Shown: positions 18,359 through 48,534, counted from the stretch's first letter. The stretch: 64,000 nt of DNA from Candidatus Doudnabacteria bacterium (GCA_963837465.1 CAWINB010000001.1:629646-693645), one strand, 5' to 3'. Program-made: numbers and translations. Notes: generated by a model from the letters alone, not told the origin.

Positions 18359-19063
18359 AGTGTCAAGGGTGACCCTTGACACTACTCTTCTTCAAAGACT
18401 AAATCGGCAAAAATTAAGTGCTCCGGTTTATAGTTTTTTAACAAAAAACTTTTATAATTTACAGACGTTAGCTTATTTGTATCCATAAATATTTGGGGAT
18501 TGGCCAAACCATTATTTTCTTGGCCTAAATAAACAGCCATACTGGAATATTTCCATTCAAAGGGTTGCAGGGGGTTCAAATGTATGTAAGCAATAAGCTG
18601 CGTTAAGTAACTGTCATTCAAGACATTTTTGCTTTTATAAATTCCTTGAAAAATATGCCCCGAATGGCCGTATTTTTTATTAAAATATGATGAATAAGAA
18701 GTACACAGCCTATGCAAAAATATTTTAAGCCCGTTGACTTGGTTTTGTTTAACTAAAAAATGAAAATGGTTTGGCATTAAGCAATAACTTAAAATCTCCA
18801 ATCCCATTGCAGGCAAAGGTTTCAAGCGAATACTGCCTTTGGCGCTGCGCTTTGGCAACGGCAACAAACCAAGCAGCAACTTAGCCCTGTATATAAAATT
18901 TAGGTAATCTTGTTCATCCAAAAATATAAGCGCTTTATTTGCTCCCCTATTATAAGCGTGGAAATAAGCGCCGACAAAATTTGGTTTATAATCCCTTCCA
19001 ATCATGGCTTAATTATAAAGGAATTTGACACCAAGTCAAGTGTCAAGGGTGACCCTTGACACT
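18359..19063 (-). mobile_element. IS200/IS605-like (RAYT-type) element with identical terminal hairpins
   Basis: A perfect 25 nt hairpin agtgtcaagggtgacccttgacact sits at 18359-18383 and again at 19039-19063, flanking a Y1 transposase gene. Confidence 0.75.
18382..19005 (-). CDS. Y1 (HUH) transposase, IS200/REP-associated tyrosine transposase family
   Basis: 207 aa. HUH motif CLMPNHFHFLV and catalytic-Tyr region LIAYIHLNP. Confidence 0.75.
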   Translation of the reverse strand: MIGRDYKPNFVGAYFHAYNRGANKALIFLDEQDYLNFIYRAKLLLGLLPLPKRSAKGSIRLKPLPAMGLEILSYCLMPNHFHFLVKQNQVNGLKIFLHRLCTSYSSYFNKKYGHSGHIFQGIYKSKNVLNDSYLTQLIAYIHLNPLQPFEWKYSSMAVYLGQENNGLANPQIFMDTNKLTSVNYKSFLLKNYKPEHLIFADLVFEEE

Positions 19064-20715: not shown

Positions 20716-23700
20716 CTACGGCACCTCGTCAATAGTCGGATACTGGCCGCCGCAGTAGAACTGCAGCACCGGGGTATTGCCAGTAACCACAATGCTACCG
20801 CTATTGGCGGACAGGGAGAAACTGTTCTGGAAGCGGGAACTGGTGGAGCAGGACCCGCCGGAAACCGCCAGCGTGGCATCGTAGGTTAAAAAGGATTTGC
20901 CGCCCTGGGCTACGGAGTAGCCGCTTAAGTTAACGCTTAGCGTCTGGTTGGGCGCGGTGCCGGTAAGGCTGTACTGGCCGCTGGCCGGATTGGATCCGAC
21001 TTGTATCAGGGCCGTGCCATTGTACTTGACGTTCCAGCCAGCGTTCGGCACGCTTAAGTTAAGCATGCTGTCGGTCAGGCTTAATTTGGTGGCGGTGGCC
21101 TGTCCCTGGTCATTGCATAAATCAATCCTAAAGCTTAACGTGTCTCCCAAATTTAAGTTTGTTCCCGAAGGCAGGGCCGCAAAGCCGTTACACTGGCTGG
21201 GAACCGGGCTGATGGCGTTGCCGCTGATGGCCACAATGTTTTTTGAGGAATCCGTCATAACGGCGGTACAGGCAACCGAAGAGTAAGGGTTGCCGGTTTC
21301 GGCAACCTGGGCCGAAGTACCGTTGCCATTGGTGGCGGCCACGCTGTAGCTGTGGGGGTTGTTGTCAGGCGGGGTGAAGTTGTAAGTTAAGACCTCGCCT
21401 GTCTGGGAAGGCGGAGAACTGGCCGGGACGGTTGTCTGATAAACTCCGTCCATATATATCTTAAAGCCGGTCTCGTTGGTGGAATTATCCGTCCAGGTAA
21501 TCTGGACCTGGCCGCAGGACACGGTACCGCCCGGAGGATTACTGCTGCCGCTGTTGTAGACGCTGCCGCCGGTGGGAGCGGTCGGGCTTTGAGCCACATT
21601 ATTAACCGTTATGTTGGTGTTAAGGGAGTATTGGTTGCCTAAACTGTCAAAGGCTGTAATGGTGATGGTGTGCGGGCCGTTGACCAGAGTCGTGGTGTCA
21701 AAATTGCCGTAAATAAAACCGCAGTTGGAGGAACAGCCCGAAGCCGAATCATTAACCGGATAAAAGGATGGGCTGATGGCGGAATCGGATATTAAGGTAG
21801 AACTGCTGGCTATCCACAGCTGGGCTCTGGTTATGGAAGCGCTGGCCGAAGGCGCTATATAACCTTTAATGTTAATAAGGCCGGAAACCGTGCTGTTGGC
21901 CGCTGGCGTTTCCAAAACTATGTTCGGCGGGCCGTCCACGGTCCAGGTGCCCGTTTGCTGCCAGCCGCTGCCTGCCGTGGCATCGTTGGCGGTCATCCAA
22001 AACTGCTGGGGGCCGACAAACGGCGACAAAAAAGTGTAATTTAAAATTAAAGTAAGATTGCTGCCCGACCTGGAAACGCTGGAGGCGGAAACGTTGGCCG
22101 TACACTGGCTGTTGCTTAAGCTTGCGCCGCTGCCAATGACACTGCCCGTGCTCCAGGCGCTGCCGGAATCATTGAGTAAAAATAGGGAATTAGTGGCGGA
22201 ATCGTAACGCAAATAACAGGCATTGTTGGTGGGATTGGCGGCATAGCTGGACCTTAAAAAGGTCCAAACCTGGGTAATGTCCCCTGCCCCGGCCGTATCG
22301 GTATAGACCTGGGTAAAGCTGGTGCTGCTGGCGACTTCGGAACTGCCGGAAGAAGGAGTTAAAGACGCGGCCGTAATAGTATTAATGACCAGAGAGCTGC
22401 TGACAGGACCGCTGGCCGAACTACAGTTTAAGGTGTAGGTGGTTTGGGCGGCTATGGGCGCGGTGGTATGGCTGGTGGTGGCAATGGCATCGGCCACGCT
22501 GTCGGGATTCTGGTTGTTGGATAACGAGCAGGAACTGACATTAGCGGTAGTCCAAGTCAGGTTGGATGTGCCGCCAAAACTGACCATAACCGAGCTGGCA
22601 GTGGGGGTAACTCCGCCTGTGTTGGTGCCGTACAGCACGGCTGTGGGGATTGTGGAAGAAGCTGTCTGGCTCCAGTTTAAGTAGGCTTGGTCGCCGCCGC
22701 CATCCTGGAAGTATTCATACTTGATGATGTGCTGGCCCGCTCCCAGGCTTACGCTGGCGGTGTTGGTGGCATAGCCCCGCGGATTCCAGTCGCCGGTTAT
22801 GTGGAGGCCATCCACGTAAAGATTGTCGCCATCGTCTGAGCCGGCGGTAAACTGGTAGGTGCCGCCGCTAAAGTTAAAGGTGCCCTGCCAGCGGGCGGAC
22901 CAATTGTCATCCAGGGTCGGATAACTGCCGTTGGAAGTAGCAGGCCCGCCAGCATTCCAGTTTGTGTTAATGGCGGTAAAATTGTCGGCATTGCCGGAAG
23001 CCGTGGCTTGGGCCGGGGCATTGCCGTACTGATTGGTCAAAGTACTGCCATCGGAGTCGTTGTACAAACAGCCAACCAGCTGGTTGGCGCCAGGTCCGGG
23101 CGTGGTGCAGGGAAAGGTGGTGGCCGTGTTATATATAGTTAACTGACTGTATATTTCTGGGGCTGTATAATTAAGATTAGAGCAACCCAGGGTATATACC
23201 GTCGGGCTGTTGTCTATAGGTTGCGTGTCATAGCTCGTATAAACCTGTAGGTTGCCGTAGGGGTCCTGATCTCCATGGTCGCTAGTAAGATTACATAAAC
23301 CATAGCCACTGGGAATGTCCCAGGTCAAAGTTGATGTTCCGCCATAATTAACGGTTACCGAGCCCGCGGTGGGAGTATTACTGCCTGAGTTGGTGCCGTA
23401 AAGAGTTACAACGCCTGCGCACTGATAATTGCAAGTTGAACTAGTATCGCAATGGCCGGGACCGCCATAACCTGTACAGCTATTGTCTGCGCTGCAACTG
23501 CCACTGTTGCAGGAGTAATAGGTGGTGCCACCGTTGTTGCCGCTTCCACAGACATTACTGCAAGTTGAACTAGTATCGCAACTACCGGGACCGCCATAAC
23601 CGTTACAGCTATTGTCTGCGCTGCAACTGCCACTGTTGCAGGAGTAATAGGTGGTGCCGCTGCCACTGCCGTTGCCACTGCTTCCAGATGAGCAATCAAC

Positions 23701-24048
23701 AGGAAAGTCAAAAGTCCACCCTTGAGTTATAACGAAACTGCAAGGATTAGGTGTAGGAAGTGCAACGCATTGATTCGAACTACATTCTGCTTGTGTTAAA
23801 TACCCAAGATATGTTATGGGAGGATTACATTCCTCCACAATCCCGCAATGACCATTTATATTATAAAAACCGCCATAGCCTACTGATGAGCAAGTCGCCG
23901 AGACGGCGGGAACGCAACTACCTGCCAAATAGGAACAGTCAGAACCAGAAGTACAATACTGCGCCTTTGCATAATCCCCACACATAAAGACAAACGCAAT
24001 CGCGAGGATGGTTAAAAAAAATAAACCGCCTTTAAATAAAAATTTCAT
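20716..24048 (-). CDS. Giant secreted surface protein with a PA14 domain, Cys-rich tandem repeats and Ig-like or adhesin-like domains
   Basis: 1110 aa. Signal peptide MKFLFKGGLFFLTILAIAFVF. Two tandem units of about 41 aa TTYYSCNSGSCSADNSC.GYGGPG.CDTSSTC. A PA14-like segment GTFNFSGGTYQFTAGSDDGDNLYVDG...AGQHIIKYEYFQDGGGDQAYLNW. The rest is long and Thr/Ser/Asn-rich. Confidence 0.6.
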   Translation of the reverse strand: MKFLFKGGLFFLTILAIAFVFMCGDYAKAQYCTSGSDCSYLAGSCVPAVSATCSSVGYGGFYNINGHCGIVEECNPPITYLGYLTQAECSSNQCVALPTPNPCSFVITQGWTFDFPVDCSSGSSGNGSGSGTTYYSCNSGSCSADNSCNGYGGPGSCDTSSTCSNVCGSGNNGGTTYYSCNSGSCSADNSCTGYGGPGHCDTSSTCNYQCAGVVTLYGTNSGSNTPTAGSVTVNYGGTSTLTWDIPSGYGLCNLTSDHGDQDPYGNLQVYTSYDTQPIDNSPTVYTLGCSNLNYTAPEIYSQLTIYNTATTFPCTTPGPGANQLVGCLYNDSDGSTLTNQYGNAPAQATASGNADNFTAINTNWNAGGPATSNGSYPTLDDNWSARWQGTFNFSGGTYQFTAGSDDGDNLYVDGLHITGDWNPRGYATNTASVSLGAGQHIIKYEYFQDGGGDQAYLNWSQTASSTIPTAVLYGTNTGGVTPTASSVMVSFGGTSNLTWTTANVSSCSLSNNQNPDSVADAIATTSHTTAPIAAQTTYTLNCSSASGPVSSSLVINTITAASLTPSSGSSEVASSTSFTQVYTDTAGAGDITQVWTFLRSSYAANPTNNACYLRYDSATNSLFLLNDSGSAWSTGSVIGSGASLSNSQCTANVSASSVSRSGSNLTLILNYTFLSPFVGPQQFWMTANDATAGSGWQQTGTWTVDGPPNIVLETPAANSTVSGLINIKGYIAPSASASITRAQLWIASSSTLISDSAISPSFYPVNDSASGCSSNCGFIYGNFDTTTLVNGPHTITITAFDSLGNQYSLNTNITVNNVAQSPTAPTGGSVYNSGSSNPPGGTVSCGQVQITWTDNSTNETGFKIYMDGVYQTTVPASSPPSQTGEVLTYNFTPPDNNPHSYSVAATNGNGTSAQVAETGNPYSSVACTAVMTDSSKNIVAISGNAISPVPSQCNGFAALPSGTNLNLGDTLSFRIDLCNDQGQATATKLSLTDSMLNLSVPNAGWNVKYNGTALIQVGSNPASGQYSLTGTAPNQTLSVNLSGYSVAQGGKSFLTYDATLAVSGGSCSTSSRFQNSFSLSANSGSIVVTGNTPVLQFYCGGQYPTIDEVP

Positions 24049-26151: not shown

Positions 26152-26942
26152 GAAAAAGGGGTCAGGAGCTGTTTTTAGGACGCCCTGGTTTTCGCAAAGA
26201 AGATTTCAAACCTAGATCGCTTGCGGTTTTGTGTACCCATTGCTCATTTCCTAAAGGACGATTTTTAATTATTGACCGTCTTATGTTTTCAACTTCTGTT
26301 TTGGACTGAACTGAATTGACCAACAATAAATAATCCTTACCAGGTGGTATCGGCCAAGAACTCAATAACTGCTTCTGTTCTTCATCTCCTTGTTCCCTAA
26401 TCCACAAGCTCCCCCACTGCCAATCTTGGGCTTTGTCCACTAACTTTGCCCTAAGGGGGTTCCTTTCCACATATCTGGTTAATTGCAAAAAATATTCATC
26501 AGACTCAACCGGGAAAGATTTATATCTGCCTTGATACAAATGGCCGCTGCCTACGGTATGGTGTGCCGCATGCCATCTCTGGGCATGTGTCATGGTCAAC
26601 CAGGCCATAGCCTTTGACAAGACACCATTTTGGAAAGGCTTTAAAATTAAATGCCAATGATTTGGCATAATACAAAAAGCCAAAAGCTCTACCGGAAACT
26701 TTTTCTTTGCTTCCGTTAGGACTTCTATAAAAGCTTGATAATCCTTTTCTCTACGAAAAATGGCCAGCCGACCATTGGCACGATTAATCGTGTGATAAAT
26801 AATGTCAGCAACGTCTACTCTGGGAGGCCTAGGCATGCCTTTATAGTTTTAATGGTTCCATTAAAACTATAAAGGCATGCTGATGAAAATTATTTAAAAA
26901 ATAATTAAAAACTTTATACATAATAGCTCCTGACCCCTTTTC
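26152..26942 (-). mobile_element. Second IS200/RAYT-type element with terminal inverted repeats and a 23 bp-stem internal hairpin
   Basis: aaaaggggtcaggagct at 26152-26168 pairs with agctcctgacccctttt at 26926-26942. A long hairpin gcatgcctttatagttttaatgg tt ccattaaaactataaaggcatgc lies at 26828-26877. Confidence 0.7.
26162..26836 (-). CDS. Y1 (HUH) transposase, IS200/RAYT family (second, divergent copy)
   Basis: 224 aa. HUH motif CIMPNHWHLIL and catalytic-Tyr region LTRYVERNP. Confidence 0.7.
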   Translation of the reverse strand: MPRPPRVDVADIIYHTINRANGRLAIFRREKDYQAFIEVLTEAKKKFPVELLAFCIMPNHWHLILKPFQNGVLSKAMAWLTMTHAQRWHAAHHTVGSGHLYQGRYKSFPVESDEYFLQLTRYVERNPLRAKLVDKAQDWQWGSLWIREQGDEEQKQLLSSWPIPPGKDYLLLVNSVQSKTEVENIRRSIIKNRPLGNEQWVHKTASDLGLKSSLRKPGRPKNSS

Positions 26943-27883: not shown

Positions 27884-29194
27884 TTACCCTCCCCACCACA
27901 GCATAACGGCCAAAATTATCACAAAACTGCAGTTGGCAATTAAAGGCAGATGCTGGACGTGGCGTTTAATGCCAATGGCCAAAATTAAACTGACCAGCAT
28001 AGCCGCGATAAATAAAAGATAGAAACGGTACTCAAAAGCGTTGGGGTCAAAACGCGGGCCGAAAAAACTGACATAGGAAGAAGGCGCGGCCGGGGCCACG
28101 CTGGCCACATTATAGTTGGACGCGGTGGTGGGCGCGAAATCCGCCAACCGCAACTGGCTGGTTTGCCCGTCTATATTAAAAGCTTCCACTTTAACCGTGA
28201 CGCTGCTTTGCGTAAGCTCGGAAGCGGCCACGCTGCCGCTCCACTGGGTTTGGCTTTGCGGCAGGAGCATTATGGCCTGCTGGCCGAAGTAGGCAATAAC
28301 TTTTACGGCCGGCCCCTTTATCCGCGCGGTGATATCCACATTGGATCCGTCCAAATTTATGCTGCCGCTTTGCACGCTGACATTCATGGCGGCGGGCGTG
28401 GCGGCCTTGGGCTTAGCGGCGGCCGGAGCGGCGGAACTGGCGCCGCGGATTTGTCCCACTGCCGGAGTAACGCTTTGAGTTTGAACGCTGACAGCGGGCG
28501 CCGGAACCGCGGCTGTCTGCACCGGCGTCGGCTGGTTATTTATGGCCACGGCCTGGGCCGCGGGCGTGCCGAATTCCTGGACTACAAAAATGGCATTATG
28601 GCCCTGGTAGACCCCCTGGGAAATGCCCACGCCAATATCCTGAAAGTCCGCGTTTAAAATATTGGCGCGGTGGTCGGGACTGTTCATCCAGGCGGTTTCC
28701 ACATCTTCGGCTTCGGTAAAATTGACAGCCAGATTTTCGCCGGCCATCAAATAATTATAACCGGCGGCGGTAACAAAACTCCACGGCGTCCGTCCGTCCG
28801 GAGTAACGTGGGCAAAGTAACCCTTGGCCAGCATATCATTGGCCTTGGCCTGGGCGGCCTGGTCCAGCTCGCTGTTTTCCGTCAGTGACTGTTCGTTGTA
28901 CTGTTGGCGTGAGGCGTTGGTAAGGCTGATAATATTAACCGGGGTAATGGCCGAGGAAAAAGCCGGCTGGATGGCGCCAAAAGCCAGAACAGCCAGAACA
29001 AAAATTTTCATGGCCACCAGCACGGCCGAAAATAAACCCAAAGCCCGGTGGCCGAGGACGTGGGGATGGTAGTTGTTGCGGGCATTGGGAATAAAATGGT
29101 CGTGGATATGGCGGCCCAAAGCCAAAACCGACTCGCCTGCTTTTTTAAAGCAGTAGTCGGCCGGCAAAATCATTATGTCCAAAACATAATCCAT
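27884..29194 (-). CDS. CAP/SCP (PR-1-like) domain protein with flanking TM anchors
   Basis: 436 aa. Contains ...GYFAHVTPDG...SPDHRANILNADFQDIGVG..., the CAP-domain signature. Also has an Ala/Pro-rich linker and a C-terminal TM. Confidence 0.6.
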   Translation of the reverse strand: MDYVLDIMILPADYCFKKAGESVLALGRHIHDHFIPNARNNYHPHVLGHRALGLFSAVLVAMKIFVLAVLAFGAIQPAFSSAITPVNIISLTNASRQQYNEQSLTENSELDQAAQAKANDMLAKGYFAHVTPDGRTPWSFVTAAGYNYLMAGENLAVNFTEAEDVETAWMNSPDHRANILNADFQDIGVGISQGVYQGHNAIFVVQEFGTPAAQAVAINNQPTPVQTAAVPAPAVSVQTQSVTPAVGQIRGASSAAPAAAKPKAATPAAMNVSVQSGSINLDGSNVDITARIKGPAVKVIAYFGQQAIMLLPQSQTQWSGSVAASELTQSSVTVKVEAFNIDGQTSQLRLADFAPTTASNYNVASVAPAAPSSYVSFFGPRFDPNAFEYRFYLLFIAAMLVSLILAIGIKRHVQHLPLIANCSFVIILAVMLWWGG

Positions 29195-29401: not shown

Positions 29402-29812
29402 TTAAAAATTTGGCAGCTCCTGCCAGGAAATTAAGGATGAATCCGAAGCGGTAATTACCATCTGTAAATTGGTCGCGGCGCGGGCGTATTGAGCCTGGAC
29501 CTGGATGGTAATCTGACCCGGCTGCGGCGAGTCTTGTTGTACCGACAAAATAGCGCACGAATCACTGCCGATGCTGACGGAACCGGTTAGGCTGCCGCCG
29601 GCTCCTTGCGCCAAACGGACGCGGGCCTCGTCCAGGCAACCGCGCGCCAGATTAAAACTTTGGGTCTTGGCCTGGCCATCCAGCAAATCAAAACGCGAAA
29701 AAAACACCAGCGCGCTGACTGAAGCGGCAATTACCACAAGCAGCGCGCAAATAACCAGCGCGGATATCAAGGCCATAAAACCGGATTGGGAATTACTTTT
29801 GCTGGAACTCAT
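29402..29812 (-). CDS. Pilin-like protein with hydrophobic N-terminal helix (minor pseudopilin, ComGG-like position)
   Basis: 136 aa. N-terminal GFMALISALVICALLVVIAASV. It is the last gene of the pseudopilin operon. Confidence 0.45.
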   Translation of the reverse strand: MSSSKSNSQSGFMALISALVICALLVVIAASVSALVFFSRFDLLDGQAKTQSFNLARGCLDEARVRLAQGAGGSLTGSVSIGSDSCAILSVQQDSPQPGQITIQVQAQYARAATNLQMVITASDSSLISWQELPNF

Positions 29813-29818
29813 TTTAAA

Positions 29819-30307
29819 TTATTTCCATAAATAATCCGTGGCCGTAAAATCCCGGCTCAAAGTTAAACCGCCGGCCGCCGCCGACTTTAGGGTAAAGCCA
29901 AAATCCACGCCCCCGGGCCGGCCGGCCGAAGCGGGAATATCCAAAAAATACAGGCTGGAAACAATAACACTGCTGCTGTTTAAAACTTCCGGCGGAGCAG
30001 CGCCTTCCGCCAGGCTTAAGCTGGCGCCTGTTAAATCAAACACCAGGGGATTTGAAGCAGAATCATATTTGCCGATGGACAGCCGGGATGAAGTCGCGGT
30101 AACGGAAAACGCGCCGGACATTGCCCAGTTAAATTTGGCCAGAATAAAATCCCCTTCTTCCTGCAAAAAACTTTGGCTTTGCGAGCGGCCGGAACTTTGA
30201 ATGATAACTCCCGCCGCTCCGAAAGCGCCGCCTAAAATTACGGCGAAAAGCGCCAGGTAAATTAAAACTTCCATGAGCGTGAATCCTGAAATATTTTTAT
30301 AATTCAT
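29819..30307 (-). CDS. Prepilin-type N-terminal cleavage/methylation domain pseudopilin
   Basis: 162 aa. The GFTLMEVLIYLALFAVILG class-III signal motif. Confidence 0.65.
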   Translation of the reverse strand: MNYKNISGFTLMEVLIYLALFAVILGGAFGAAGVIIQSSGRSQSQSFLQEEGDFILAKFNWAMSGAFSVTATSSRLSIGKYDSASNPLVFDLTGASLSLAEGAAPPEVLNSSSVIVSSLYFLDIPASAGRPGGVDFGFTLKSAAAGGLTLSRDFTATDYLWK

Positions 30308-31746
30308 GGCCCGGCGCTGATTATGGATAAGCTTGATTTGCCGACCGCCGAAACCGAAGCGGCTAAAAGATAATTGCCCTCGCAGGCCAGGGCCGTGCCG
30401 GTGTTGCCGGCCGGCAAAGACAGCGCCGGGGCGTAATTGCTTATGGACAAAGGGTTGTCAACGCGCAAAATTTGCAGCTGGTTGTCGGTCAGCAAAAAAG
30501 CCAGGTAGTCCCGCGCCGCCAGGCCGTCTACGGTTGTGTTGTTGCCGGAGCCGAGGTCCAGGTGACCAAGTTCGCTTATGGACGAAGCGGCGGCAACGTT
30601 TAAAATATAAAATTCATTATTGCCAAAAGTCCGCCCCAAATACAAAGTCTGCCCGACCATGGCCAGGCTTTTGCCGTGCAAACCCCCGCTGGCGTTAAAG
30701 TCTCCGAACGGTTGCATGTTGGCCGACAAATTGCCGGGGCTGACATCAACAGCCAAAACATCATCGGCATTGGGACTGGCGATATAGGCGGCGCTGCCTC
30801 TGACGTAAATATCGTTAACGGCATTACCTACAGCCAGGCCGCCTTTCCAGAGAGGAGCCAGGACATTGGAAACATCTATAATATTAAATTCGGGGCCGGA
30901 AACGGTTTTGGCCAGTCCCAAATAAACATAACCGCCCTGGTAAAACACGCTTCTGCCTATCCCCTGGCTGCTGGAACCGGCTACAATGCTTGATGGAATT
31001 TTGTAAGTAGTGATGACTTTGGGCGGCGTTTGGCTGACATCCACAATTTGCAGCTGGCCTTTGGTAAAACTGCTGGCGCTGGCCACGTAGGCGTATTTGC
31101 CGGCCACAAAAATTCCATTCAGCCCGGTGTCGTCCGCCGGATCGTTATCCAATTTGCCGATTAGCGATGGAGCCTGGGGATTACTGACATCAAAAATAAA
31201 AAATGTCTCCTTGTTGCTGGCGCTGTTGCTGGCTGTGGCGTAAAGTTTTTTCTGGTAAGCATAAAGTCCGGTCACCGCGTAACTGCCGGACGGATCCCCG
31301 ACTGCCTGGGCAAAATCCAGGCTACTGATTCGCGGATGCTGCCAGTCGCCCGACAGCACGGACGCGCAGTCAGAAGCAGTTTGCGCGTTTTGCCAGTTGG
31401 AAATGAGCGTGGAAAACGATTGGGTTAAATTTTGGCCGCCGCTTTGCCAGGTTAAATTGGCGCTGACTTGCTTGGTGTAAATATCGGGCATTTGCACACC
31501 GAGACTTTGCTTGTAAATGCCGTTGGTGGTAGTGGCCAGCGGATTTACAAGGTTAAAGTCTTCGGCCGCGGACGCGCGGGCCGATTCCAGCATGGACCGC
31601 GCCAGGCTCTGCGCCTGGGCGTCGTTCTGGCCGGAAAGCAGAGCAGCCTGGGCGCTAAATACAAAAGCAGCCGCGGCGCTCAGCCCCAGCGCCAAAACCG
31701 CCAGAGCTATCAGCATTTCCAAAGTTATAAATCCGCGGATATTCAT
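30304..31746 (-). CDS. Prepilin-type pseudopilin fused to an LVIVD-repeat beta-propeller domain (putative pilus tip or adhesin subunit)
   Basis: 480 aa. N-terminal GFITLEMLIALAVLALG. Repeated ...YAYVAS...LQIVDVS, YVYLG...FNIIDVSN, AAYIAS...LAVDVS and TLYLG...FYILNV units fit the LVIVD repeat. Confidence 0.6.
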   Translation of the reverse strand: MNIRGFITLEMLIALAVLALGLSAAAAFVFSAQAALLSGQNDAQAQSLARSMLESARASAAEDFNLVNPLATTTNGIYKQSLGVQMPDIYTKQVSANLTWQSGGQNLTQSFSTLISNWQNAQTASDCASVLSGDWQHPRISSLDFAQAVGDPSGSYAVTGLYAYQKKLYATASNSASNKETFFIFDVSNPQAPSLIGKLDNDPADDTGLNGIFVAGKYAYVASASSFTKGQLQIVDVSQTPPKVITTYKIPSSIVAGSSSQGIGRSVFYQGGYVYLGLAKTVSGPEFNIIDVSNVLAPLWKGGLAVGNAVNDIYVRGSAAYIASPNADDVLAVDVSPGNLSANMQPFGDFNASGGLHGKSLAMVGQTLYLGRTFGNNEFYILNVAAASSISELGHLDLGSGNNTTVDGLAARDYLAFLLTDNQLQILRVDNPLSISNYAPALSLPAGNTGTALACEGNYLLAASVSAVGKSSLSIISAGP

Positions 31747-31757
31747 TGAGAGCCTGT

Positions 31758-32219
31758 TTAGGGAGAATTAATCTGCCCTTCCCGGTTAATGCCAATTACA
31801 ACCGGGGCGTGGGCGTGGTCATCCATAATAATATTTCCGATATTGCCGCTCGCGCCGCTTAGCTGGCTAAAGACAACCTCGCTCAAACCGCTGAGCGCGT
31901 AGCCGCCGTTTCCGGGAAAGATAATGTCCTGGGCCGGATCACGAGCCGAGAAACTCAGGCCCTCAAACAGAATATACCGCGTTGGCTGCCGGTTAATGTA
32001 AACACCGTGCGGCTTCTGGTCTATGTTGTTAACGGATTGGCTGCGGGCTTTTTGCAAAAGTCCGACCAGCAAATTTTGTTCGGAAAAAAAACTGTAGGCG
32101 CGGTAATCGTCAAAACTCATCGCCAAAGCCAGTCCGGCGAGCATGGTTAACAGGCTCAGGGAGACAATTATTTCCACTAAAGTAAAACCCTGATTTTTTT
32201 CTTTGAAAACAAACAGCAT
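31758..32219 (-). CDS. Type IV pilin/pseudopilin (major-pilin candidate of the comG-like operon)
   Basis: 153 aa. N-terminal QGFTLVEIIVSLSLLTMLAG prepilin motif. Confidence 0.65.
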   Translation of the reverse strand: MLFVFKEKNQGFTLVEIIVSLSLLTMLAGLALAMSFDDYRAYSFFSEQNLLVGLLQKARSQSVNNIDQKPHGVYINRQPTRYILFEGLSFSARDPAQDIIFPGNGGYALSGLSEVVFSQLSGASGNIGNIIMDDHAHAPVVIGINREGQINSP

Positions 32220-32441
32220 AAATCTTAAAATCTATTTTAAAAATACTTTTTAAACGGACTATGCCGGTTTATATAACAGAAGATGGAGAACACAGATTTA
32301 AAACAGATGAACACGGATGACTGTGCGCGCTATCCGGGTTCTCCGTTTGTCCGCTCCGTGTTAATCCGTTTCCAAAAATTTGTCCCCCGCTGTTCCTGTT
32401 ACTAACTCCCCTAATTTTTCCGGCCACGTGATTATAAAAGA

Positions 32442-33563
32442 CTAAGGGTGAAGATTTTGGGTAATGCCGTAAATGGGCATAATTATAGACACGGCCACAA
32501 ACCCGACTATTAATCCCATAAATATCATCAACACCGGTTCAATGACCGTGGACAGATTTTTGGTTAAATCCCCCAGTTCGTCTTCGTACATAGCCGACAA
32601 ATACAGCAGCCCCGAACTCAGACTGCCGGCTGTTTCGCCCACGCTGATCATTTGCGCCATAACGGACGGGAAAATTTTGGGATGCTCCAGCATATGCGCC
32701 GACAGCTTCTGGCCTTTTAAAATTTTATCGGCCAATATCAGCAGGTGGTTTTTATAAACCTGGTTCTGCGCCGCGCCCGCCGCGATGCGCGCCGCCTCCT
32801 CCAGCCGCACATCGCTTTTAAGCAGCAGCCCCAAAGTCCGGCAAAAATTGGCCAGACAATAGCTTTGCAGCATCCGGCCCAAAAAAGGCAGACGCAAAAC
32901 CAACCGGTCAAAACGTCGTTTTACGTAACTTTTCCGAAGCAGGAACCCGGCGGCAAAAAAAGCCGCGGCCAGGGAAATTAAAATATACGGCCAGCGGCCG
33001 GAAATAAAATTGCTGATAAAAATCAGCGCCCGGGTGGACAAGGGCAGGCGGGTGCTAAAACTTTGAAAAATCGGCAGAATCTTTGGCAGCACATAAACCG
33101 CCAGCAGCCCGGCAATGCCAAATGTCGCAACCACTATCACCGCCGGATAAACCAGGGCGGAAACAACCTTCCTTTTCAGCTCCCGGTTCTTTTTCAGTTC
33201 TTCGGCCAGATAGCTGAGGTTTTCGCCCAAGGTGCCGCTGACTTCGCCGATTCGCACAATATTAAGGGCAAAGCCGCCGAACACGGACGGGAACTTGGAC
33301 ATGGCCGATGATAAAAACTGGCCGTTGTTGACTTCGGCGACAATGGACCGCAGAATCCGCCCGCTGGCCCTGGAGCCGGATTGAGCCGCCATCATTGTCA
33401 GCGCCTGGACAATAGGCGCCCCGGCCTCTATAAGCACAGCCAGGCGTTTGGCGAATAAAATCCGTTCCTGGGAATTAAGGCGCAAAAAATATTTATCCAG
33501 CAATTGATCACGGACCAAAAAAATATTTTTGAGCCGGACGAAAAAAAATTGTTTTTTAATCAT
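32442..33563 (-). CDS. GspF/PilC-family platform protein (second copy; ComGB-like)
   Basis: 373 aa. Two GspF repeats (LAVLIEAGAPIVQAL...; ...SVMAQMISVGETAGSL) and three TM segments. Confidence 0.8.
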   Translation of the reverse strand: MIKKQFFFVRLKNIFLVRDQLLDKYFLRLNSQERILFAKRLAVLIEAGAPIVQALTMMAAQSGSRASGRILRSIVAEVNNGQFLSSAMSKFPSVFGGFALNIVRIGEVSGTLGENLSYLAEELKKNRELKRKVVSALVYPAVIVVATFGIAGLLAVYVLPKILPIFQSFSTRLPLSTRALIFISNFISGRWPYILISLAAAFFAAGFLLRKSYVKRRFDRLVLRLPFLGRMLQSYCLANFCRTLGLLLKSDVRLEEAARIAAGAAQNQVYKNHLLILADKILKGQKLSAHMLEHPKIFPSVMAQMISVGETAGSLSSGLLYLSAMYEDELGDLTKNLSTVIEPVLMIFMGLIVGFVAVSIIMPIYGITQNLHP

Positions 33564-34761
33564 AGGATATCCTCAGAACTTCTTCCAAAGTAGTCAGTCC
33601 GGCCGCGGCTTTGGCCAAACCGTCTTCGGCTAAAACTGCCATACCGGCTTGCCTGGCCAATCCGCTTACGCGCTCAGCCGAAGCTTTTTCCAGCAATGCC
33701 CCGCGAATGGCCGCGTCAGGCGGCAAAACTTCGTGGATGCCCAGACGGCCCAGGTATCCGCTTTGGCCGCAGGCTCCGCAACCCGCGCCTTTGTAAAAAT
33801 CCCCGGCTGTTTCCATGGGCAAAGTTTTACGCAAGCTCGCCAGCGCCGCCTTGCTTATTTGGGTTTTAGTTTTACAATTTTCACAAATTTTTCTGGCCAG
33901 ACGCTGGCCGATAACCAAACTTAAAGTGGAACTCAGCAGATAAGGCTCCACTTTCATATCCAGCATCCGCGGCAGGGTGGAGGCGGCGTCATTGGTATGC
34001 AGGGTGGACAGCACCAGGTGGCCGGTTAAGGCCGTGTTCACGGCCAGGGCTGCCGTATCGCTGTCGCGGATTTCGCCGACCATGATAATGTTGGGATCCT
34101 GCCTTAAGATACTGCGCAGGCCGTTGGCGAATGTTAAGCCGGTTTTGGGATTAACCTGAATTTGCTCAATGCCGGAAATCGCGTACTCAATCGGGTCCTC
34201 CACGGTAATAATGGCCGCCTCTTTGGTATTTAACTGTTTAATTAAAGTATATAAAGTCGTGGTTTTGCCCGAGCCGGTGGGACCGGTGATTAAAATTAAG
34301 CCGTGCGGCCGGCGCAGGGCGTTTTGGATTTTTAGCAGATTGCCTTCCGAAAAACCCAAGCTACCCAAACCAAAATCCTCGGCCTTGTCGCCAAGCAACC
34401 GCAGCACCGCGTTTTCGCCGTAGTAAGTCGGGGCCACGGACACGCGCACGTCCACGGGCTGGCCCGTGCTGAGGTTAAGCCGGAAACGTCCATCCTGCGC
34501 GGCCTGATGTTCGTCGGTGCGCAAACCCGCCAAAATTTTAATCCGGCTGATAATGCCGCTTTGCATTTGCCTGGGGCAAAAATGCGCGTCCCTGAGCACT
34601 CCGTCCACGCGGTAGCGGACGCGGATATCATTATTTTGGGGATGAAAGTGCACGTCCGAAGCGCGCGAAACATAGGCCTCGCAAATCAGCTCCTGCACCA
34701 AATTGATCATGGAAGCGCCATCCCCTTTTGCCAATTCCTCCTTAATTTTGTCTTGAGCCAT
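33556..34761 (-). CDS. GspE/PilB-family secretion ATPase lacking the N1 domain (ComGA-like)
   Basis: 401 aa. GPTGSGKTTTLYT, VEDPIEY, GEIRD, TLHTN, and the tetracysteine CENC...CGACGQSGYLGR. Confidence 0.85.
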   Translation of the reverse strand: MAQDKIKEELAKGDGASMINLVQELICEAYVSRASDVHFHPQNNDIRVRYRVDGVLRDAHFCPRQMQSGIISRIKILAGLRTDEHQAAQDGRFRLNLSTGQPVDVRVSVAPTYYGENAVLRLLGDKAEDFGLGSLGFSEGNLLKIQNALRRPHGLILITGPTGSGKTTTLYTLIKQLNTKEAAIITVEDPIEYAISGIEQIQVNPKTGLTFANGLRSILRQDPNIIMVGEIRDSDTAALAVNTALTGHLVLSTLHTNDAASTLPRMLDMKVEPYLLSSTLSLVIGQRLARKICENCKTKTQISKAALASLRKTLPMETAGDFYKGAGCGACGQSGYLGRLGIHEVLPPDAAIRGALLEKASAERVSGLARQAGMAVLAEDGLAKAAAGLTTLEEVLRISYD

Positions 34762-35204: not shown

Positions 35205-35582
35205 CTATTTTTGCATATCCGTCAGCAGTTGCTCAAAGTGCTTGAGCGCTTCGGGAAGTTGGGCGTAAACTTTTTCAGCGACGGGTTCTCTATAAGTATG
35301 AACGGCTTCATTCCGCAGATCGGCTAAATCCAGCCAATAATTATCAAAGGCCATGACACCCTTGTTGTAGGCTTCGCGAAAAGTATCTTTTGGCGATTTA
35401 CTAATGACACCTTTACGTTCTTCCAAAAAAGTTTTTAAAGTTTTCCAGGCTACGTCAAAAGTAAATTCAAACCGCTTAATGGCCGAATCGCGGATGAATT
35501 CATTTTTTTCCTGCTGTAAAACCTCGTTCAGCCGCTGAACGGCTTTGGAAAAATCACTAAGCGATGATTCTAATTTAGACAT
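35205..35582 (-). CDS. HepT/HI0074-family nucleotidyltransferase-substrate-binding toxin component
   Basis: Likely start MSKLESSL at 35582 (the ORF track extends to 35651). IRDSAIKRFEFTFDVAWKTLKTFLEERKG is typical of the HI0074 family. Confidence 0.65.
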   Translation of the reverse strand: MSKLESSLSDFSKAVQRLNEVLQQEKNEFIRDSAIKRFEFTFDVAWKTLKTFLEERKGVISKSPKDTFREAYNKGVMAFDNYWLDLADLRNEAVHTYREPVAEKVYAQLPEALKHFEQLLTDMQK

Positions 35583-35586
35583 AATT

Positions 35587-35898
35587 TTAGATGCTAATAA
35601 TTTCGGTTTTTGCTTTCGCGGTTTGCCGAAAACTGTCCGAAACGTCGGCAAAATCGACTACATCAATTTTATAAAGCGTGCGAAGATCTTCCAGGTCTTC
35701 ACGAATTTGGGAGATTTTGCTTAAGCCCACCGGCTCCTCGCCTTCAATACCAACGTCAATATCGGAATACTGGTCGCCGCGTCCCGTGACCCGCGAGCCG
35801 AAGAAAAAAACCTGGTGGGTTTTTAAGTCCACATATTTGGCGATAATCTCCAAAATTTTCGCCTTTAGCTCGGCTAAATTTTCATGCTCCAGTCTCAT
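35587..35898 (-). CDS. MNT-family minimal nucleotidyltransferase (antitoxin partner of HepT)
   Basis: 103 aa. FFFGSRVTGRGDQYSDIDVGIEG is the GS-X9-13-DxD nucleotidyltransferase motif. Its stop is 5 bp upstream of the HepT start. Confidence 0.7.
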   Translation of the reverse strand: MRLEHENLAELKAKILEIIAKYVDLKTHQVFFFGSRVTGRGDQYSDIDVGIEGEEPVGLSKISQIREDLEDLRTLYKIDVVDFADVSDSFRQTAKAKTEIISI

Positions 35899-35905: not shown

Positions 35906-38813
35906 TTATAACACCTTTTTTAAATACTGCCCGGTGTAACTGGCTTTAACTTTCGCCACGTCCTCCGGCGTGCCGGCGGCGACGAGCTGGCCGCCTTTGT
36001 CGCCGCCTTCGGGACCGAGGTCTATTAGCCAGTCCGCGGTTTTTATCATATCCAGGTTGTGTTCAATAACCACAACTGTATTGCCTTTGTCCACCAGTTT
36101 ATTTAAGACCTGCACCAGGCGCTTAACATCGGCAAAGTGAAGGCCCGTGGTCGGCTCATCAAGCAAATACAAAGTGCGGCCGGTGGAAGTGCGGGACAAT
36201 TCCGTGGCCAGTTTAATTCTCTGCGCTTCACCGCCGGAAACCGTGGTGGCGTTTTGCCCAAGGCGCATATAACCCAAACCTACTTGCGAGAGTGTTTCCA
36301 GTTTTTTGTGGATCATCGGCAGGTTGGCGAAAAATATTTTGGCTTCGTCTACGGTCATTTCCAAAACATCGGAAATGGTTTTGTCTTTGTAATGGATTTC
36401 CAGAGCCTGCTGGTTGTAGCGTTTGCCGTGGCATTCTTCGCAGGTAATGTAAACGTCCGGCAAAAAATTCATTTCCACTTTAATGACGCCGTCGCCCGCG
36501 CACTTTTCGCAGCGGCCGCCTTTTACGTTAAAACTAAAGCGTCCGGCCCGGTAGCCGCGCATGCGCGCTTCTTTGGTGTCCGCAAATAAATCGCGGATGG
36601 GAGTGAACAAGCCGGTGTAAGTGGCCGGATTGCTGCGCGGGGTGCGGCCGATCGGCGACTGGTCTATGTTTATGATTTTGTCTATGTGTTCAATGCCGGT
36701 AATTTTTTTATGTTTGCCCGGCTGTTCCTTGCTGTTGTAAAAATATTTGGACAGCGCCGTGGCTAAAATATCATGAAAAAGCGTGGATTTGCCGCTGCCG
36801 GAAACGCCGGTCACGCAGACAAATTTACCCAGCGGAATGTCCACGTTAATATCCTTTAAGTTAAACTCCTCGGCGCCTAAAATTGACAGCTTCCTGCCGT
36901 TGCCCGGACGGCGACGCTTGGGAATTTCCACAAATTCCTTGCCCGAAAGATACTGTCCGGTAATGGATTTCGGGTCTTTTTCAATGGCCTTGGGCGTGCC
37001 CTGCGCCACCAATTCCCCGCCATGCTTGCCGGCTCCGGGGCCAATATCCACCACCCAATCAGCCTCGCGGATGGTTTCTTCATCGTGCTCCACCACAATT
37101 ACCGTATTACCCAAATCCCTTAAATCTTTTAAAGTTTGGAGCAGGCGGCTGTTGTCGCGCTGATGCAAACCAATAGAGGGCTCGTCTAATATATAGAGGA
37201 CGCCGGTTAGGCCGGAGCCGATTTGCGTGGCCAGGCGGATGCGCTGAGCTTCGCCGCCGCTTAAAGTGTCCGCCGCCCTGTCTAAAGATAAATAAGAAAG
37301 TCCCACGTTCAGCAAAAACGACAGGCGCGCGTTGATTTCCTTAAGCACCTGTTTGGCAATGGCCAAATCTCTCTGGTTTAAATTTTTTGCTAAAAATTTA
37401 AAATAATCCGACGCAAGCTCTATATTCATCGCCGACACGTCAACAATCCCTTTGCCGCCCACAGTGACGGCCAGGACTTCGGCCTTAAGGCGCTTTCCAA
37501 GGCATTCCGGGCAGCGCCTTACGCGCATATAGTTTTCAATTTCACCGCGCATGTATTCGGAATCGGTTTCGCCGTAGCGGCGTTCCAGGTTGGGAACCAC
37601 GCCTTCAAAAGCCGTGTTCATTTCAAACTCGCCTTCACCCGAGCGGAATTCGCCGGAGACCCGGATTTTTTTATCGCCCGTGCCGTACAAAATTATATCA
37701 ATATATTTTTTGGGAAATCTTAAACCGGCGTGTTCAGGGAAAAACCGTACTCCTTGGCCACGGCCTGCAAAATTCTGCTGTACCACGACAGTCGCGAGGT
37801 GGTTTTGCTCCAGGGACGGATGGCGCCTTCGGCCAAAGTCAGTCTCTGGTTGGGCATAACCAAATCCGGCTCCACGGTCAATTTGTGGCCAAGACCCTTG
37901 CATTCCGGACAGGCGCCGTGCGGGCTGTTGAAACTAAAATCCCTCGGATCCAGCTCCGCCAGTTGCATATGGCCGTCGGGACAGGCGAATTTTTGGGAAA
38001 GGACAATATCCTGCGCGCTGTAGCGGCATGCCTGGGCGTGCCGTCTTTGGAAGGCGCGCCAGGGCGTGCCTCTGCATTATTTTTATCATCAAAAGGCAAA
38101 GCCATGGCAATCCCGTCCCCCAAATCCAAAGCCTTTTCCAAACTTTCCGACAGCCTGCCTTTATCGGCCGGGTCAATGACCAGGCGGTCCACCACTACAT
38201 CTATAGAATGTTTTTTCTGTTTGTCCAAATTTACGTTTTGGGCTTCGTTTAAATCCATAACCGTGCCGTCCAAACGCACGCGGGCGAAACCGGCTTTTTT
38301 TATCTGCTCAAAAATAACTTTATGCTCGCCTTTTTGGTCTTTAATGAACGGCGCCAGCAAAATAATCCTGCTGCCGGGTTTAAGCGACAATAGCTGTTCC
38401 ACCATGGCGGCAATGGTCTGTCCCTGGATTTTTTTGCCGCAAACCGGACAGTGCGGCTGGCCGATGCGCGCCCAAAGCAGACGCATATAATCGTAAATTT
38501 CGGTTACGGTGCCGACGGTGGAACGCGGGTTGTGGCTGGCGGATTTTTGGTCGATGCTGATGGCCGGAGATAATCCTTCTATTTTATCCACGTCCGGCTT
38601 GTCCATTAGGCCAATAAACTGGCGGGCGTAGGCGGACAGGGATTCCACATACCGGCGCTGGCCCTCGGCGTAAATAGTATCAAACGCCAAAGACGACTTG
38701 CCGCTGCCGGACAAGCCTGTCATTACAATCAGTTTATTCCGCGGCAAATCCACATCCAAATTCTTTAAATTGTGCTGCCGCGCCCCGCGGATGGAAATAA
38801 TGTCTTTAGGCAT
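35906..38813 (-). pseudogene. uvrA: Excinuclease ABC subunit A (uvrA) split over three reading frames by at least two frameshifts
   Basis: Frame a (37878..38813) is correct from [19 protein letters not shown]...[23 protein letters not shown] up to ...[21 protein letters not shown]. Frame b (37720..37968) carries ...[20 protein letters not shown].... Frame c (35906..37903) is correct from about [18 protein letters not shown]... onward and includes the second ABC module ([36 protein letters not shown]). The junctions are near 38030-38100 and 37720-37740. Confidence 0.75.
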
Positions 38814-41745: not shown

Positions 41746-43185
41746 GAAGTAGTTTCTAATCAAGACATGGCCCCTATCCGCCAGCGGCCATTTTTTGATG
41801 TTCCTTAAGTTTAATGTTTTTAAATACTGCTGACTTTGCTTCCTGCATAAGTTTTGCCCATCCGTTATGGCTGTGGCCGGTGCTGATGTCATCCAGTTGT
41901 TTTTCCGTCCGTCCTGGGGCAAGGTAGCGTGTCCAATTATCCAGAGTCTTCAGTTTGGCATAGGGAGTTAAGTAAATATCATATTTTTTCTTTTCCTTGC
42001 CCTTATGGTCAACCGTGGTGGTGGCAAAGCCGCAGGGTCTGTGGAAGTTCAGGTAAGGGTTAAAAAACTTCTGGTAAAATTCGTTAATCTCCTGCGCGTA
42101 GGTTTTCGGGATATGAGTGTAGCCCATATACTTTCTGATGACACTGCCGTTCTTGCTTTCCACTAAGGCATTGTCATTGCAGTGCCTGCTTCGTGATTTT
42201 GTCTGTTTAATAACTAACCTTCTAAGAATATCAGCTACCGTGTAATTAATGTTCTCGCTACCGTTGTCAGAGTGGAAGTTAATTACTGTAAAGGGAAACA
42301 TTTGCTGCAACTGTTCAAATATGGGTTTTAAATGCAGCTCGGAAATCGTTTCCACACAGAAGACCATTTCCCATTGGGTGACTTCATCCACCAGGTTTAA
42401 GTGGTAAATACCTTTCTCATACTTGCCCAAAGCCAGCTTACGGTCGCCCTGATGCACGGTATCCACCCGCAGATAGCCCGGAATGCCCATATTGTCGGGT
42501 CTTCTTCTAATACCAATCGGGGTGCTTACTGGATCGGTTATGGTAAAGGTGGTGGAGTGGCTGGTGTAAATTCTTTTAACTCGCAGATTGTAGATATGGG
42601 AAACGGAAATATCTTTTAGTCTTTTAAACCGTTCGTCACCGAATATTTCATATTCAGCCATTAGGATCTGTTTGGTGGCATGGGCATTCATTCGTTGGTG
42701 CAGATTATCGGTTTCAGCCAGCAATAGTATTTCTGCCGGGCCATAAACAGTAACAAACCGGTTTTTCTTGCCCCAATTCGGGGACAAGGCCACTAACCCA
42801 CTTCCTCTCTTGTTGGTAATCAGTCGTTTTAGCTGTCTGCCCGACATGCCGGTCATCCGTTGGATATATTCCTTAATCTGCCCCTTGTCTTTTTTGCCTT
42901 TAAGCCGGACATAGCCAAACTTGTTTAAGACGTTGTTAATCCATTCATATTTCTCCTTTCTGGAAACTGAGGTAAAATTAATTGCTGTATTGACCTTTAG
43001 AAATTCCTTGATTTGAGCTATGCTCGTAACGCTTAAGTCTGTCATATCGATTGTCATCAAGTCAGTGTGGCAGGCTTATGCTCTTTGTACAGCTTCCGGG
43101 CAACCCTCCGGTTTCAGCAATTGGGGTACCGTCCTCCTTTAGAGGCTGTCTCAAAGATAGGGGCCATGTTCCATTGTATAAGACT
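41746..43185 (-). mobile_element. IS element copy 2 (1440 bp), inverted relative to copy 1
   Basis: Nucleotide-identical to 16891-18330 in reverse complement. The flanking sequence diverges immediately outside both ends. Confidence 0.8.
41774..43060 (-). CDS. DDE-type (rve) transposase, identical to 17016..18302
   Basis: The 428 aa protein is identical to the copy-1 transposase. Confidence 0.8.
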   Translation of the reverse strand: MMTIDMTDLSVTSIAQIKEFLKVNTAINFTSVSRKEKYEWINNVLNKFGYVRLKGKKDKGQIKEYIQRMTGMSGRQLKRLITNKRGSGLVALSPNWGKKNRFVTVYGPAEILLLAETDNLHQRMNAHATKQILMAEYEIFGDERFKRLKDISVSHIYNLRVKRIYTSHSTTFTITDPVSTPIGIRRRPDNMGIPGYLRVDTVHQGDRKLALGKYEKGIYHLNLVDEVTQWEMVFCVETISELHLKPIFEQLQQMFPFTVINFHSDNGSENINYTVADILRRLVIKQTKSRSRHCNDNALVESKNGSVIRKYMGYTHIPKTYAQEINEFYQKFFNPYLNFHRPCGFATTTVDHKGKEKKKYDIYLTPYAKLKTLDNWTRYLAPGRTEKQLDDISTGHSHNGWAKLMQEAKSAVFKNIKLKEHQKMAAGG

Positions 43186-43261
43186 CGAGATTGACACGCC
43201 GCCTGCTTTCCTTGTATAATGCACGAGCAAATTATTTATTTAATCGTTTTCCAATAATTTT

Positions 43262-47410: not shown

Positions 47411-47413
47411 TTT

Positions 47414-48531: not shown

Positions 48532-48534
48532 GAG

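Follow-up and report, generated by a model that had tools for sequence, protein, structure and literature searches.

Tip complexes of the H-I-J-K type, and caps that lack the glutamate at position 5 of the mature pilin (Glu5), are textbook features of type IV filaments. The H, I, J and K pilins are encoded in one operon, and K lacks Glu5 (PMC9934059). Modular pilins sit at filament tips (PMC9934059, PMC8179133), and PilA of Streptococcus sanguinis, a Glu5-less pilin, has been proposed as the first subunit added to the tip complex (PMC9934059). In the Saccharibacteria, TM7x has a second pilus without PilT, whose minor pilin PilX2 carries a propeller and is needed for efficient host binding and competition, not for transformation (PMC11623550). 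Members of the Patescibacteria, or candidate phyla radiation (CPR), presumably live in attachment to other microbes and have few systems that are both lineage-enriched and fitness-critical, of which pili are one; host recognition is known only for a few cultured Saccharibacteria. Here we describe a cassette of six type IV filament genes on the minus strand (29402-34761) of a 64,000-nt stretch of DNA from a Candidatus Doudnabacteria bacterium, the whole of which is referred to below as the window. The cassette encodes a predicted prepilin fused to a seven-bladed LVIVD beta-propeller, which makes it a concrete candidate for the recognition of hosts or surfaces by the Parcubacteria/Paceibacteria, the uncultured and much larger part of the radiation.

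The preliminary description of this locus had proposed a second, separate type IV filament set consisting of an ATPase, a platform protein and four prepilins, and this proposal holds. Six open reading frames (ORFs) in the same orientation lie tightly packed (Table 1), and their domain matches are far beyond chance. In gene order, the junctions are an 8-nt overlap of the platform start with the ATPase stop, a 222-nt gap, an 11-nt gap, a 4-nt overlap in which the ATG of prepilin 3 overlaps the stop of the 480-aa gene (ATGA), and a 6-nt gap. The products have the properties of type IV filament machinery, namely a PilB/GspE-family ATPase with nucleotide-binding motifs, a platform with two T2SSF domains and subunits with class III signals. 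When all six frames of the whole 64 kb were scanned for class III signal-like N-termini, four cassette ORFs only were returned, with the leaders KNQG/FTLVE, NIRG/FITLE, NISG/FTLME and SQSG/FMALI, the fourth lacking Glu5. The operon contains no gene for PilM/N/O, a secretin or a retraction ATPase. PilM, PilO and PilT belong instead to the separate operon that the preliminary description had also reported, which occupies 1-7551 in the order pilM-(197 aa)-pilO-pilB-(139 aa)-pilT-pilC, with pilC truncated. At the junction of platform and prepilin 1, related loci have 0-12 nt or an overlap, compared with the 222 nt seen here. This gap could possibly hold an internal promoter that uncouples expression of the pilins from that of the machinery; a simple scan returned no minus-strand promoter-like site within 32220..32441.

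The 480-aa product of the fourth gene is, as judged from its AlphaFold2 (AF2) model, a genuine modular prepilin composed of a class III signal, a pilin module and a seven-bladed LVIVD propeller. A prepilin-propeller fusion had been claimed before, on the understanding that the protein would have a cleavable class III signal, and that signal is present: in an alignment of 46 members of the family, G5 (the Gly at -1) and E10 (the Glu at +5) are nearly invariant, being conserved in at least 90%, and the invariant columns include W100, C127, W135, P138 and C455. Of 248 family members, 185 have the class III motif as defined by a regular expression, and most of those missing it carry GS[ST]TLE or AFSTLE variants or are N-terminally truncated gene calls. 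The model (m8f098307ba7c), built on the 46-member alignment, has a predicted local distance difference test score (pLDDT) of 91.7 and a predicted template modeling score of 0.87. A helix at residues 4-62 (alpha1) is followed by a sheet of four strands (70-116) and then by seven four-stranded blades, whose 28 strands lie between residues 134 and 479, with pLDDT mostly >90. The protein thus has the architecture of a modular type IV pilin by AF2 and Pfam, in which an independently folding module is grafted onto a signal-bearing pilin module. Cys127 and Cys455 may staple the last propeller blade to the linker. PilV matches residues 4-85 (E=3.3e-7) and the Pfam N_methyl match is weak. When the 46 homologues were compared individually with the NCBIfam models, ComGE was matched by 23 (4.7e-8), PilV by 16 (3.3e-7), XpsI by six and GspI by one. 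Foldseek comparison of the model with the PDB returned generic WD40/BamB-type propellers only (E down to 7e-11), which confirms the propeller fold, and a phmmer search of PDB sequences gave nothing meaningful. Homology of the 480-aa protein to PilY1 was considered and rejected, there being no PilY1-family match in its Pfam or NCBIfam tables.

A word-indexed search resulted in 162 homologues of the propeller pilin. All source names among them that give an organism are Patescibacteria (Parcubacteria, Paceibacterota, Zambryskibacteria or Minisyncoccia), and the labels are mostly unnamed or hypothetical, with a few PilV. An exhaustive search of 1.84 billion cluster representatives (50% identity) found 456 clusters at E<=1e-30 and 1731 at E<=1e-10, and most of the top matches had alignments that began at residue ~4 of the query and within the first 20 residues of the target. 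Prepilin-LVIVD fusions have apparently already been catalogued as modular pilins. The LVIVD entry is presumably IPR013211. Dataset S1 of Raynaud et al. 2021 (PMC8179133) contains several entries with IPR012902-IPR013211 architectures, and the same paper mentions a Falkowbacteria pilin with 12 IPR013211 motifs "of unknown function" (PMC8179133).

The three small prepilins were assigned by comparing their syntenic orthologues with the NCBIfam models. For prepilin 1, GspH was matched by seven of eight orthologues (best 4.6e-6), ComGD by six (6.7e-9) and XpsH by two (6.4e-7), and a precomputed Pfam match to GspH exists for the orthologue in L006. The 153-aa protein was also considered as the major pilin, a candidacy rejected because its orthologues match GspH/ComGD and related loci hold a far better conserved, GspG/PilA-like fifth pilin. 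The nine orthologues of prepilin 3 match ComGF (5/9) and GspJ (3/9, best 1.1e-5), with GspI, ComGE and GspH matched in 5/9 each; the J assignment is therefore the weakest of the first three and leans partly on position. Prepilin 4 matched GspK in the window copy, at the N-terminus only. Glu5 is absent from all eight of its syntenic orthologues and from the consensus of 54 homologues, G/F[IVLM]AL[MIV]S; these homologues came from a profile search, a single-sequence search having found only the protein itself. The AF2 model of prepilin 4 (mec40a919d4f7, pLDDT 89.8) is a minimal pilin with a helix at 9-68 and five strands, and nothing in it corresponds to the large alpha-domain seen in GspK. The PDB entry closest to the model is 7o5y (E=0.059, prob 0.96), the minor pilin PilA of S. 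sanguinis, which lacks Glu5 as well. PDB profile searches with the three small pilin families hit the alpha1 helix of major pilins only. All four mature pilins of the cassette are acidic (pI 4.5-5.1).

Taken in order, the sequences of the four pilins (H, I, J and a Glu5-less, K-like protein) suggest a set of minor pilins that forms a tip or primes assembly. The likeness to the complexes known as GspH-I-J-K in type II secretion systems (T2SSs), FimU-PilV-PilW-PilX in type IVa pili (T4aP) and ComGD-GE-GF-GG in Com pili consists of four adjacent prepilin genes in the same order, Glu5 in the first three and not in the last, weak profile matches in the same succession, and the expectation that the set primes assembly and makes up the tip. 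The H and I assignments have the backing of many family members, with E values of 1e-5 to 1e-9. All matches of the cassette are nonetheless under the curated cut-offs, the fourth pilin is minimal whereas GspK has a large alpha-domain, and the I subunit, normally the smallest, here bears a propeller of ~350 residues. The H-I-J-K assignment is accordingly meant as "works like" or "ordered like" and falls short of proven family membership. Elsewhere in the window, a 494-aa protein (12027-13511, minus strand) has an HTTM domain fused to a DCC1-like thiol-disulfide oxidoreductase and may be relevant to how disulfides form in secreted pilins, given that cysteines are invariant in both the LVIVD pilin and pilin 4.

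The ATPase was described earlier as lacking its N1 domain, and the alignments bear this out. It aligns from its own residue 4-6, at position 95 of 486 in GspE and position 169 of 564 in PilB, so that the N1/MshEN region is missing. With the 585-aa PilB of the window it shares 45% identity (residues 16-401 versus 191-585). Its motifs are intact in translation, including Walker A (GPTGSGKT), the Asp box (VEDPIEY), Walker B (IIMVGEIRD) and the His box (LSTLHTNDA), and a CxxC...CxxC tetracysteine is readable as CENC...CGAC. The NCBIfam scores of the ATPase are 501 bits for GspE, 473 for PilB and 252 for ComGA, and those of the platform 276 for GspF, 240 for PilC and 139 for ComGB, all under the curated cut-offs (GspE 630, PilB 676, ComGA NF041000 300, GspF 424 and ComGB NF041012 240). 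The ATPases of four related cassettes score similarly (GspE 475-498, PilB 438-464, ComGA 239-261), and the canonical PilB of the window scores 560, 591 and 264 bits, respectively. The best PDB matches of the cassette ATPase are PilF (364 bits), PilB (350) and GspE (342). The protein was considered as a member of the ComGA family and rejected, as its score is under the cut-off and the canonical PilB scores higher. By its sequence, it appears to be a generic extension ATPase of the PilB/GspE clade that lost N1 and not a relative of ComGA. The suggestion of the preliminary description that the locus mirrors comGA-comGB-comGC..GG thus survives as a statement on architecture and not on ComG membership: the scores of the ATPase speak against a competence enzyme, and the pilins fit comGD-GG or gspH-K, the minor tip set.

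Assignment to the better known machines fares no better. The PilB score and the missing N-terminal 168 model positions do not fit a T4aP, and the GspE and GspF scores do not fit a T2SS. Family scans covered most, though not all, window ORFs of at least 100 aa, and no family corresponding to GspC, the GspD secretin, GspL or GspM was found among the ORFs scanned or among the genes called in the related loci. In T2SSs, the N1 domain of GspE (N1E) interacts with GspL. By analogy, we infer that an ATPase without N1 suits a cassette in which no PilM/GspL-type partner is encoded.

Ten related loci (L002-L011) were gathered by exact-protein look-ups plus one genome match; a scan of GTDB genomes with a single sequence had resulted in one locus. 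Genes were called up to 10 kb on each side of the cassette, and precomputed Pfam tables were available for nine relatives. Nine of the ten loci, all Patescibacteria (L002-L006 and L008-L011), share the gene order of the cassette, in which a consistently short ATPase (372-416 aa) is followed by the platform, pilin 1, the LVIVD pilin, pilin 3 and pilin 4. The other, L007, holds a remnant only. The genes flanking the cassette differ from genome to genome. In seven loci (L002, L003, L005, L006, L008, L009 and L011), a fifth prepilin of 147-171 aa follows pilin 4, with four cysteines in most copies. It is 53-58% identical between genomes, compared with ~25-45% identity of their small minor pilins to those of the window, and its match to GspG covers as many as 96 of the 134 model positions, with further matches to PilA, PpdD and ComGC. 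It is the obvious candidate for the major pilin. In L005, a 226-aa Y1_Tnp gene (12421-13101) lies between pilin 4 and this fifth gene. The fifth pilin is absent from the 64-kb window, as judged from tblastn and the motif scan, and from the 18-kb contig of L010, the closest relative.

L010 shares with the window the adjacency of uvrA and the cassette and continues into a 2439-aa Calx-beta/propeller surface protein. All six ORFs are intact in both at only 44-61% identity, which argues that purifying selection has maintained the six-gene form and speaks against simple decay. When the window is compared with L010, the ATPases are 61%, the platforms 56% and the pilins 44-53% identical, whereas the identity of UvrA is 76-89% along most of the protein; the pilus proteins, and the pilins in particular, diverge much faster than the neighboring housekeeping gene. 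Among the loci in general, pilins are 24-53% and ATPases 57-62% identical. What seems new here, as read from sequence comparison, is that the LVIVD pilin takes position I in a cassette of 6-7 genes whose synteny is strict and which is widespread in Patescibacteria, together with the N1-less ATPase, the absence of an alignment complex and the lineage-specific variant without a major pilin. No new principle is involved: modular pilins at tips, priming sets of the HIJK type and CPR pilins with a propeller have been described before.

Table 1. Features of the type IV filament cassette and of its propeller-bearing prepilin (window coordinates).
Feature	Position	Strand	Basis
Extension ATPase, PilB/GspE family, N1/MshEN-less, 401 aa	33556..34761	-	PF00437 E=7.7e-121
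Platform, PilC/GspF family, 373 aa	32442..33563	-	PF00482 T2SSF E=1.3e-51, two stretches
AT-rich gap, 222 nt, platform to prepilin 1	32220..32441	-	sequence read
Prepilin 1, GspH/ComGD/FimU-like minor pilin, 153 aa, leader MLFVFKEKNQG/FTLVE	31758..32219	-	N_methyl E=6.5e-7
Prepilin 2, 480 aa, pilin module + LVIVD propeller	30304-31746	-	LVIVD PF08309 E=6.5e-8
Class III leader of the 480-aa prepilin, MNIRG, cleavage before F6, Glu at +5	31732..31746	-	conserved motif
Pilin module of the 480-aa protein, ~residues 6-120, I-type (PilV/GspI/ComGE-like)	31387..31731	-	AF2 model, PilV match
Seven-bladed LVIVD beta-propeller (predicted), residues 134-480	30307..31347	-	AF2 model, Foldseek, PF08309
Prepilin 3, GspJ/ComGF-like minor pilin, 162 aa, leader MNYKNISG/FTLME	29819..30307	-	N_methyl E=5.6e-7
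Prepilin 4, Glu5-less cap pilin (K-like / S. sanguinis PilA-like), 136 aa, leader MSSSKSNSQSG/FMALI	29402..29812	-	GspK N-terminus E=5.1e-6

Three described systems resemble the cassette in how a binding module may be presented. The PilA-PilB-PilC set of S. sanguinis (PMC8179133, PMC9934059) operates in an envelope without an outer membrane, includes the Glu5-less small pilin that matches pilin 4, and has adhesive modules grafted on short pilin modules and displayed at the tip. Unlike the cassette, it has vWA (von Willebrand factor A) and lectin modules in place of a propeller, three minor pilins where the cassette has four, and a machinery with PilM/N/O and PilT. The T4P-2 of TM7x (PMC11623550) is likewise a second, non-essential-type CPR pilus without its own retraction ATPase, and its PilX2 has a C-terminal seven-bladed beta-propeller, with host binding and not competence shown experimentally. 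It differs in that the propeller of PilX2 is RCC1-type and its signal non-canonical, whereas that of the cassette is LVIVD-type behind a canonical class III signal, and in that PilM2/N2/O2 are present and the pilins are in a separate locus; the likeness is one of description, not of sequence comparison. In PilY1/PilC of T4aP, a beta-propeller is presented at the tip via a minor-pilin complex, and the adhesion role predicted here would be analogous. PilY1 is, however, no pilin and has a propeller of a different family, while the propeller of the cassette is covalently part of an I-type pilin, and the resemblance appears to be functional only.

On balance, we consider it somewhat probable that the cassette encodes a compact, autonomous type IV filament, without retraction ATPase or PilMNO, that bears a propeller adhesin at its tip for binding to a host or surface. 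The mechanism is modeled on the established HIJK scheme and on PilABC of S. sanguinis (PMC9934059). A prepilin peptidase encoded elsewhere would cleave the four prepilins, which would then assemble in the membrane, on the platform, into a staggered complex that primes polymerization. The Glu5-less pilin 4 would enter first and sit on top, and the I-type pilin would display its propeller outwards. The N1-less ATPase would add the major pilin beneath this tip complex. That major pilin would be the product of the fifth gene in most relatives, and in this genome and L010 it would be encoded elsewhere or borrowed from the pilMNO/pilB/pilT/pilC system at 1-7.5 kb. The propeller would end at the fiber tip as a binding module for a ligand on a host cell or surface, a role analogous to that of PilY1 and of PilX2 of the Saccharibacteria T4P-2. 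The fast divergence of the pilins, as measured on the sequences, would fit a role in surface recognition.

More speculatively, and with considerable doubt, the cassette may be a Patescibacteria-wide, PilMNO-independent host-recognition pilus in which the fast-evolving LVIVD propeller of the I-type tip pilin chiefly sets the host cell or surface glycan that an ultra-small episymbiont binds, and whose six-gene form, lacking a major pilin of its own, grafts its tip onto the main T4aP fiber. The cassette is compact and easily recognized, its propeller pilin family comprises at least 456 clusters at 50% identity, the domain on its presumed tip pilin is of a binding type and is well modeled, and as a natural minimal type IV filament (N1-less ATPase, platform and five pilins) it should be useful for studying assembly without an alignment complex. 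Several points weigh against the tip-adhesin reading. The assignments of the small pilins are weak, being mostly N-terminal profile matches under the curated cut-offs. A complete machine can only be presumed for this genome, as neither a major pilin nor a prepilin peptidase turned up among the window ORFs scanned. The net acidity of the pilins is compatible with a local DNA-binding patch, and the generic Foldseek matches of the propeller point to no ligand for LVIVD. Finally, the adhesin role, the tip position and the HIJK-like complex are predictions from sequences and single-protein models.

The preliminary description had left the choice between a DNA-uptake and an adhesion pseudopilus. A Com-like system, in which a comGA-GG equivalent builds a short dynamic fiber that catches extracellular DNA and passes it to ComEA/ComEC, a route that CPR bacteria would need for want of nucleotide synthesis, is in our estimate unlikely. 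It draws support from the shared architecture, since the cassette has, like the ComG operon of Firmicutes, a short N1-less ATPase and a platform encoded ahead of the pilins, a D-E-F-G pilin order, and neither PilMNO nor a dedicated retraction ATPase, and since ComGD and ComGE are among the best profile matches of pilins 1 and 2. Moreover, comEC and dprA are widely present in CPR bacteria, which rely on nucleotides from outside, and natural transformation is known in Saccharibacteria (PMC6744442, PMC10187176). The equivalog scores argue otherwise, with ComGA far under the GspE and PilB scores of the same protein and under that of the canonical PilB, and with ComGB well under its cut-off. The observed order is GA-GB-(none)-GD-GE-GF-GG-like; the major pilin is third in ComG, and the major-pilin-like gene is last in the relatives and missing here. 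Linkage to com genes was not seen, with no comEA, comEC, comF or dprA among the genes called near the cassette in nine relatives or among the window ORFs scanned; the four pilins are all acidic; the bulky propeller has no counterpart among ComG pilins; and the TM7x pilus with its propeller pilin is dispensable for transformation (PMC11623550). Adhesion is preferred over DNA uptake because of the analogy to PilX2, the precedent of modular pilins, the acidity and fast divergence of the pilins, and the lack of com neighbors. The tip-adhesin half of the earlier proposal is thus the best reading, and nothing favors DNA uptake specifically.

The lack of a major pilin in the cassette, the window and the L010 contig also raises the possibility, which we judge quite improbable, that this is an accessory module whose minor pilins (perhaps with the ATPase and platform) prime or decorate the main T4aP encoded at 1-7.5 kb and give it an alternative propeller tip. 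That operon would provide PilM, PilO, PilT and PilB, no class III pilin adjoins it within the window, and HIJK sets are interchangeable between type IV filaments (PMC9934059). The cassette nevertheless always carries its own ATPase and platform, the region through which GspE/PilB-type ATPases connect with PilM/GspL-type partners is missing from this ATPase, and the well conserved GspG/PilA-like pilin in seven of ten related loci argues for a separate machine. A T2SS-like piston, in which a short pseudopilus pushes proteins through the envelope, is very unlikely: although GspE, GspF and GspH-K are the top-scoring named models and the fifth pilin of the relatives matches GspG, every score is under its equivalog cut-off, the Gsp components sought are missing as described above, CPR bacteria lack an outer membrane and secretin (PMC6744442), and a tip propeller is unlike any T2SS pseudopilin. 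We give equally little credence to a decaying remnant that has lost its major pilin and whose function is fading in this genome as its neighborhood is disturbed. The missing fifth pilin, the two frameshifts in the adjacent uvrA, the inserted MNT/HepT pair, the nearby insertion sequence (IS) copies and the unusually long gap before pilin 1 would suit such a history; the six ORFs are full length, though, with intact catalytic motifs and class III signals, and L010 keeps the same form without pilin 5, both lineages having maintained it over a long divergence.

The genes around the cassette were examined in turn. As reported earlier, the cassette lies within a segment bracketed by IS copies, two perfect (100% identical) 1451-nt inverted copies at 16880-18330 and 41746-43196, each encoding a 428-aa rve-type transposase with a TTG start. 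This position is incidental. The 23.4 kb between the copies contain purA, uvrA and uvrC, the pilus cassette and the gene for a giant PA14 protein. The idea that the IS pair forms a composite transposon with the cassette as its load was considered and rejected, as the bracketed 23 kb hold purA, uvrA and uvrC and L010 keeps uvrA next to the cassette. No transposase was found among the genes called on the 18-kb contig of L010, and with that adjacency retained the cassette is therefore not IS cargo; the IS pair is likely a substrate for inversion. IS200-like Y1 transposase ORFs (207 and 224 aa) are located at 18382-19005 and 26162-26836, one of them three genes downstream of the cassette.

Upstream of the cassette, uvrA (35906-38813, minus strand) is split over three frames when searched by tblastn with the intact 964-aa UvrA of L010, with aa 2-274 in frame -3, aa 246-383 in frame -2 and aa 362-964 in frame -1. 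The two frameshifts reflect either a pseudogene or assembly errors. Between uvrA and the pilus ATPase lies the MNT/HepT pair that had been described as adjoining the cassette (35205-35898, minus strand), composed of a Polbeta nucleotidyltransferase and an NTase_sub_bind/HepT-like protein. In L010, no gene was called in the 590 nt between uvrA and the ATPase, and the pair is therefore a lineage-specific insertion. Downstream of the cassette are encoded a 436-aa membrane-anchored CAP/YkwD-domain protein with an Ala/Pro-rich linker (27884-29194, minus strand) and a 1110-aa PA14-domain protein (20716-24048, minus strand) with a tandem 129-nt repeat (23412-23669), both probable surface proteins; the equivalent position in L010 is occupied by the 2439-aa Calx-beta/propeller protein.

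In the remainder of the window, tRNA-Ile(GAT) and tRNA-Ala(TGC) lie 733 nt apart at 7676-8561. These two tRNAs usually occur together in the 16S-23S spacer; an Rfam scan of the window returned tRNAs only and no rRNA. The region 45547-53337 looks like an integrated mobile element. A serine recombinase gene (45601-47127) overlaps a tRNA-Leu there and is followed by low-GC DNA (0.34-0.41) with genes for a VirD4/TraG-like coupling ATPase (48556-51336), a Replic_Relax protein (51348-52244) and a reverse transcriptase (52327-53337). Repeats in inverted orientation are present at 45628-45740/48047-48159 (100%) and 48151-48467/60859-61175 (93%), and repeats reach to ~61530.

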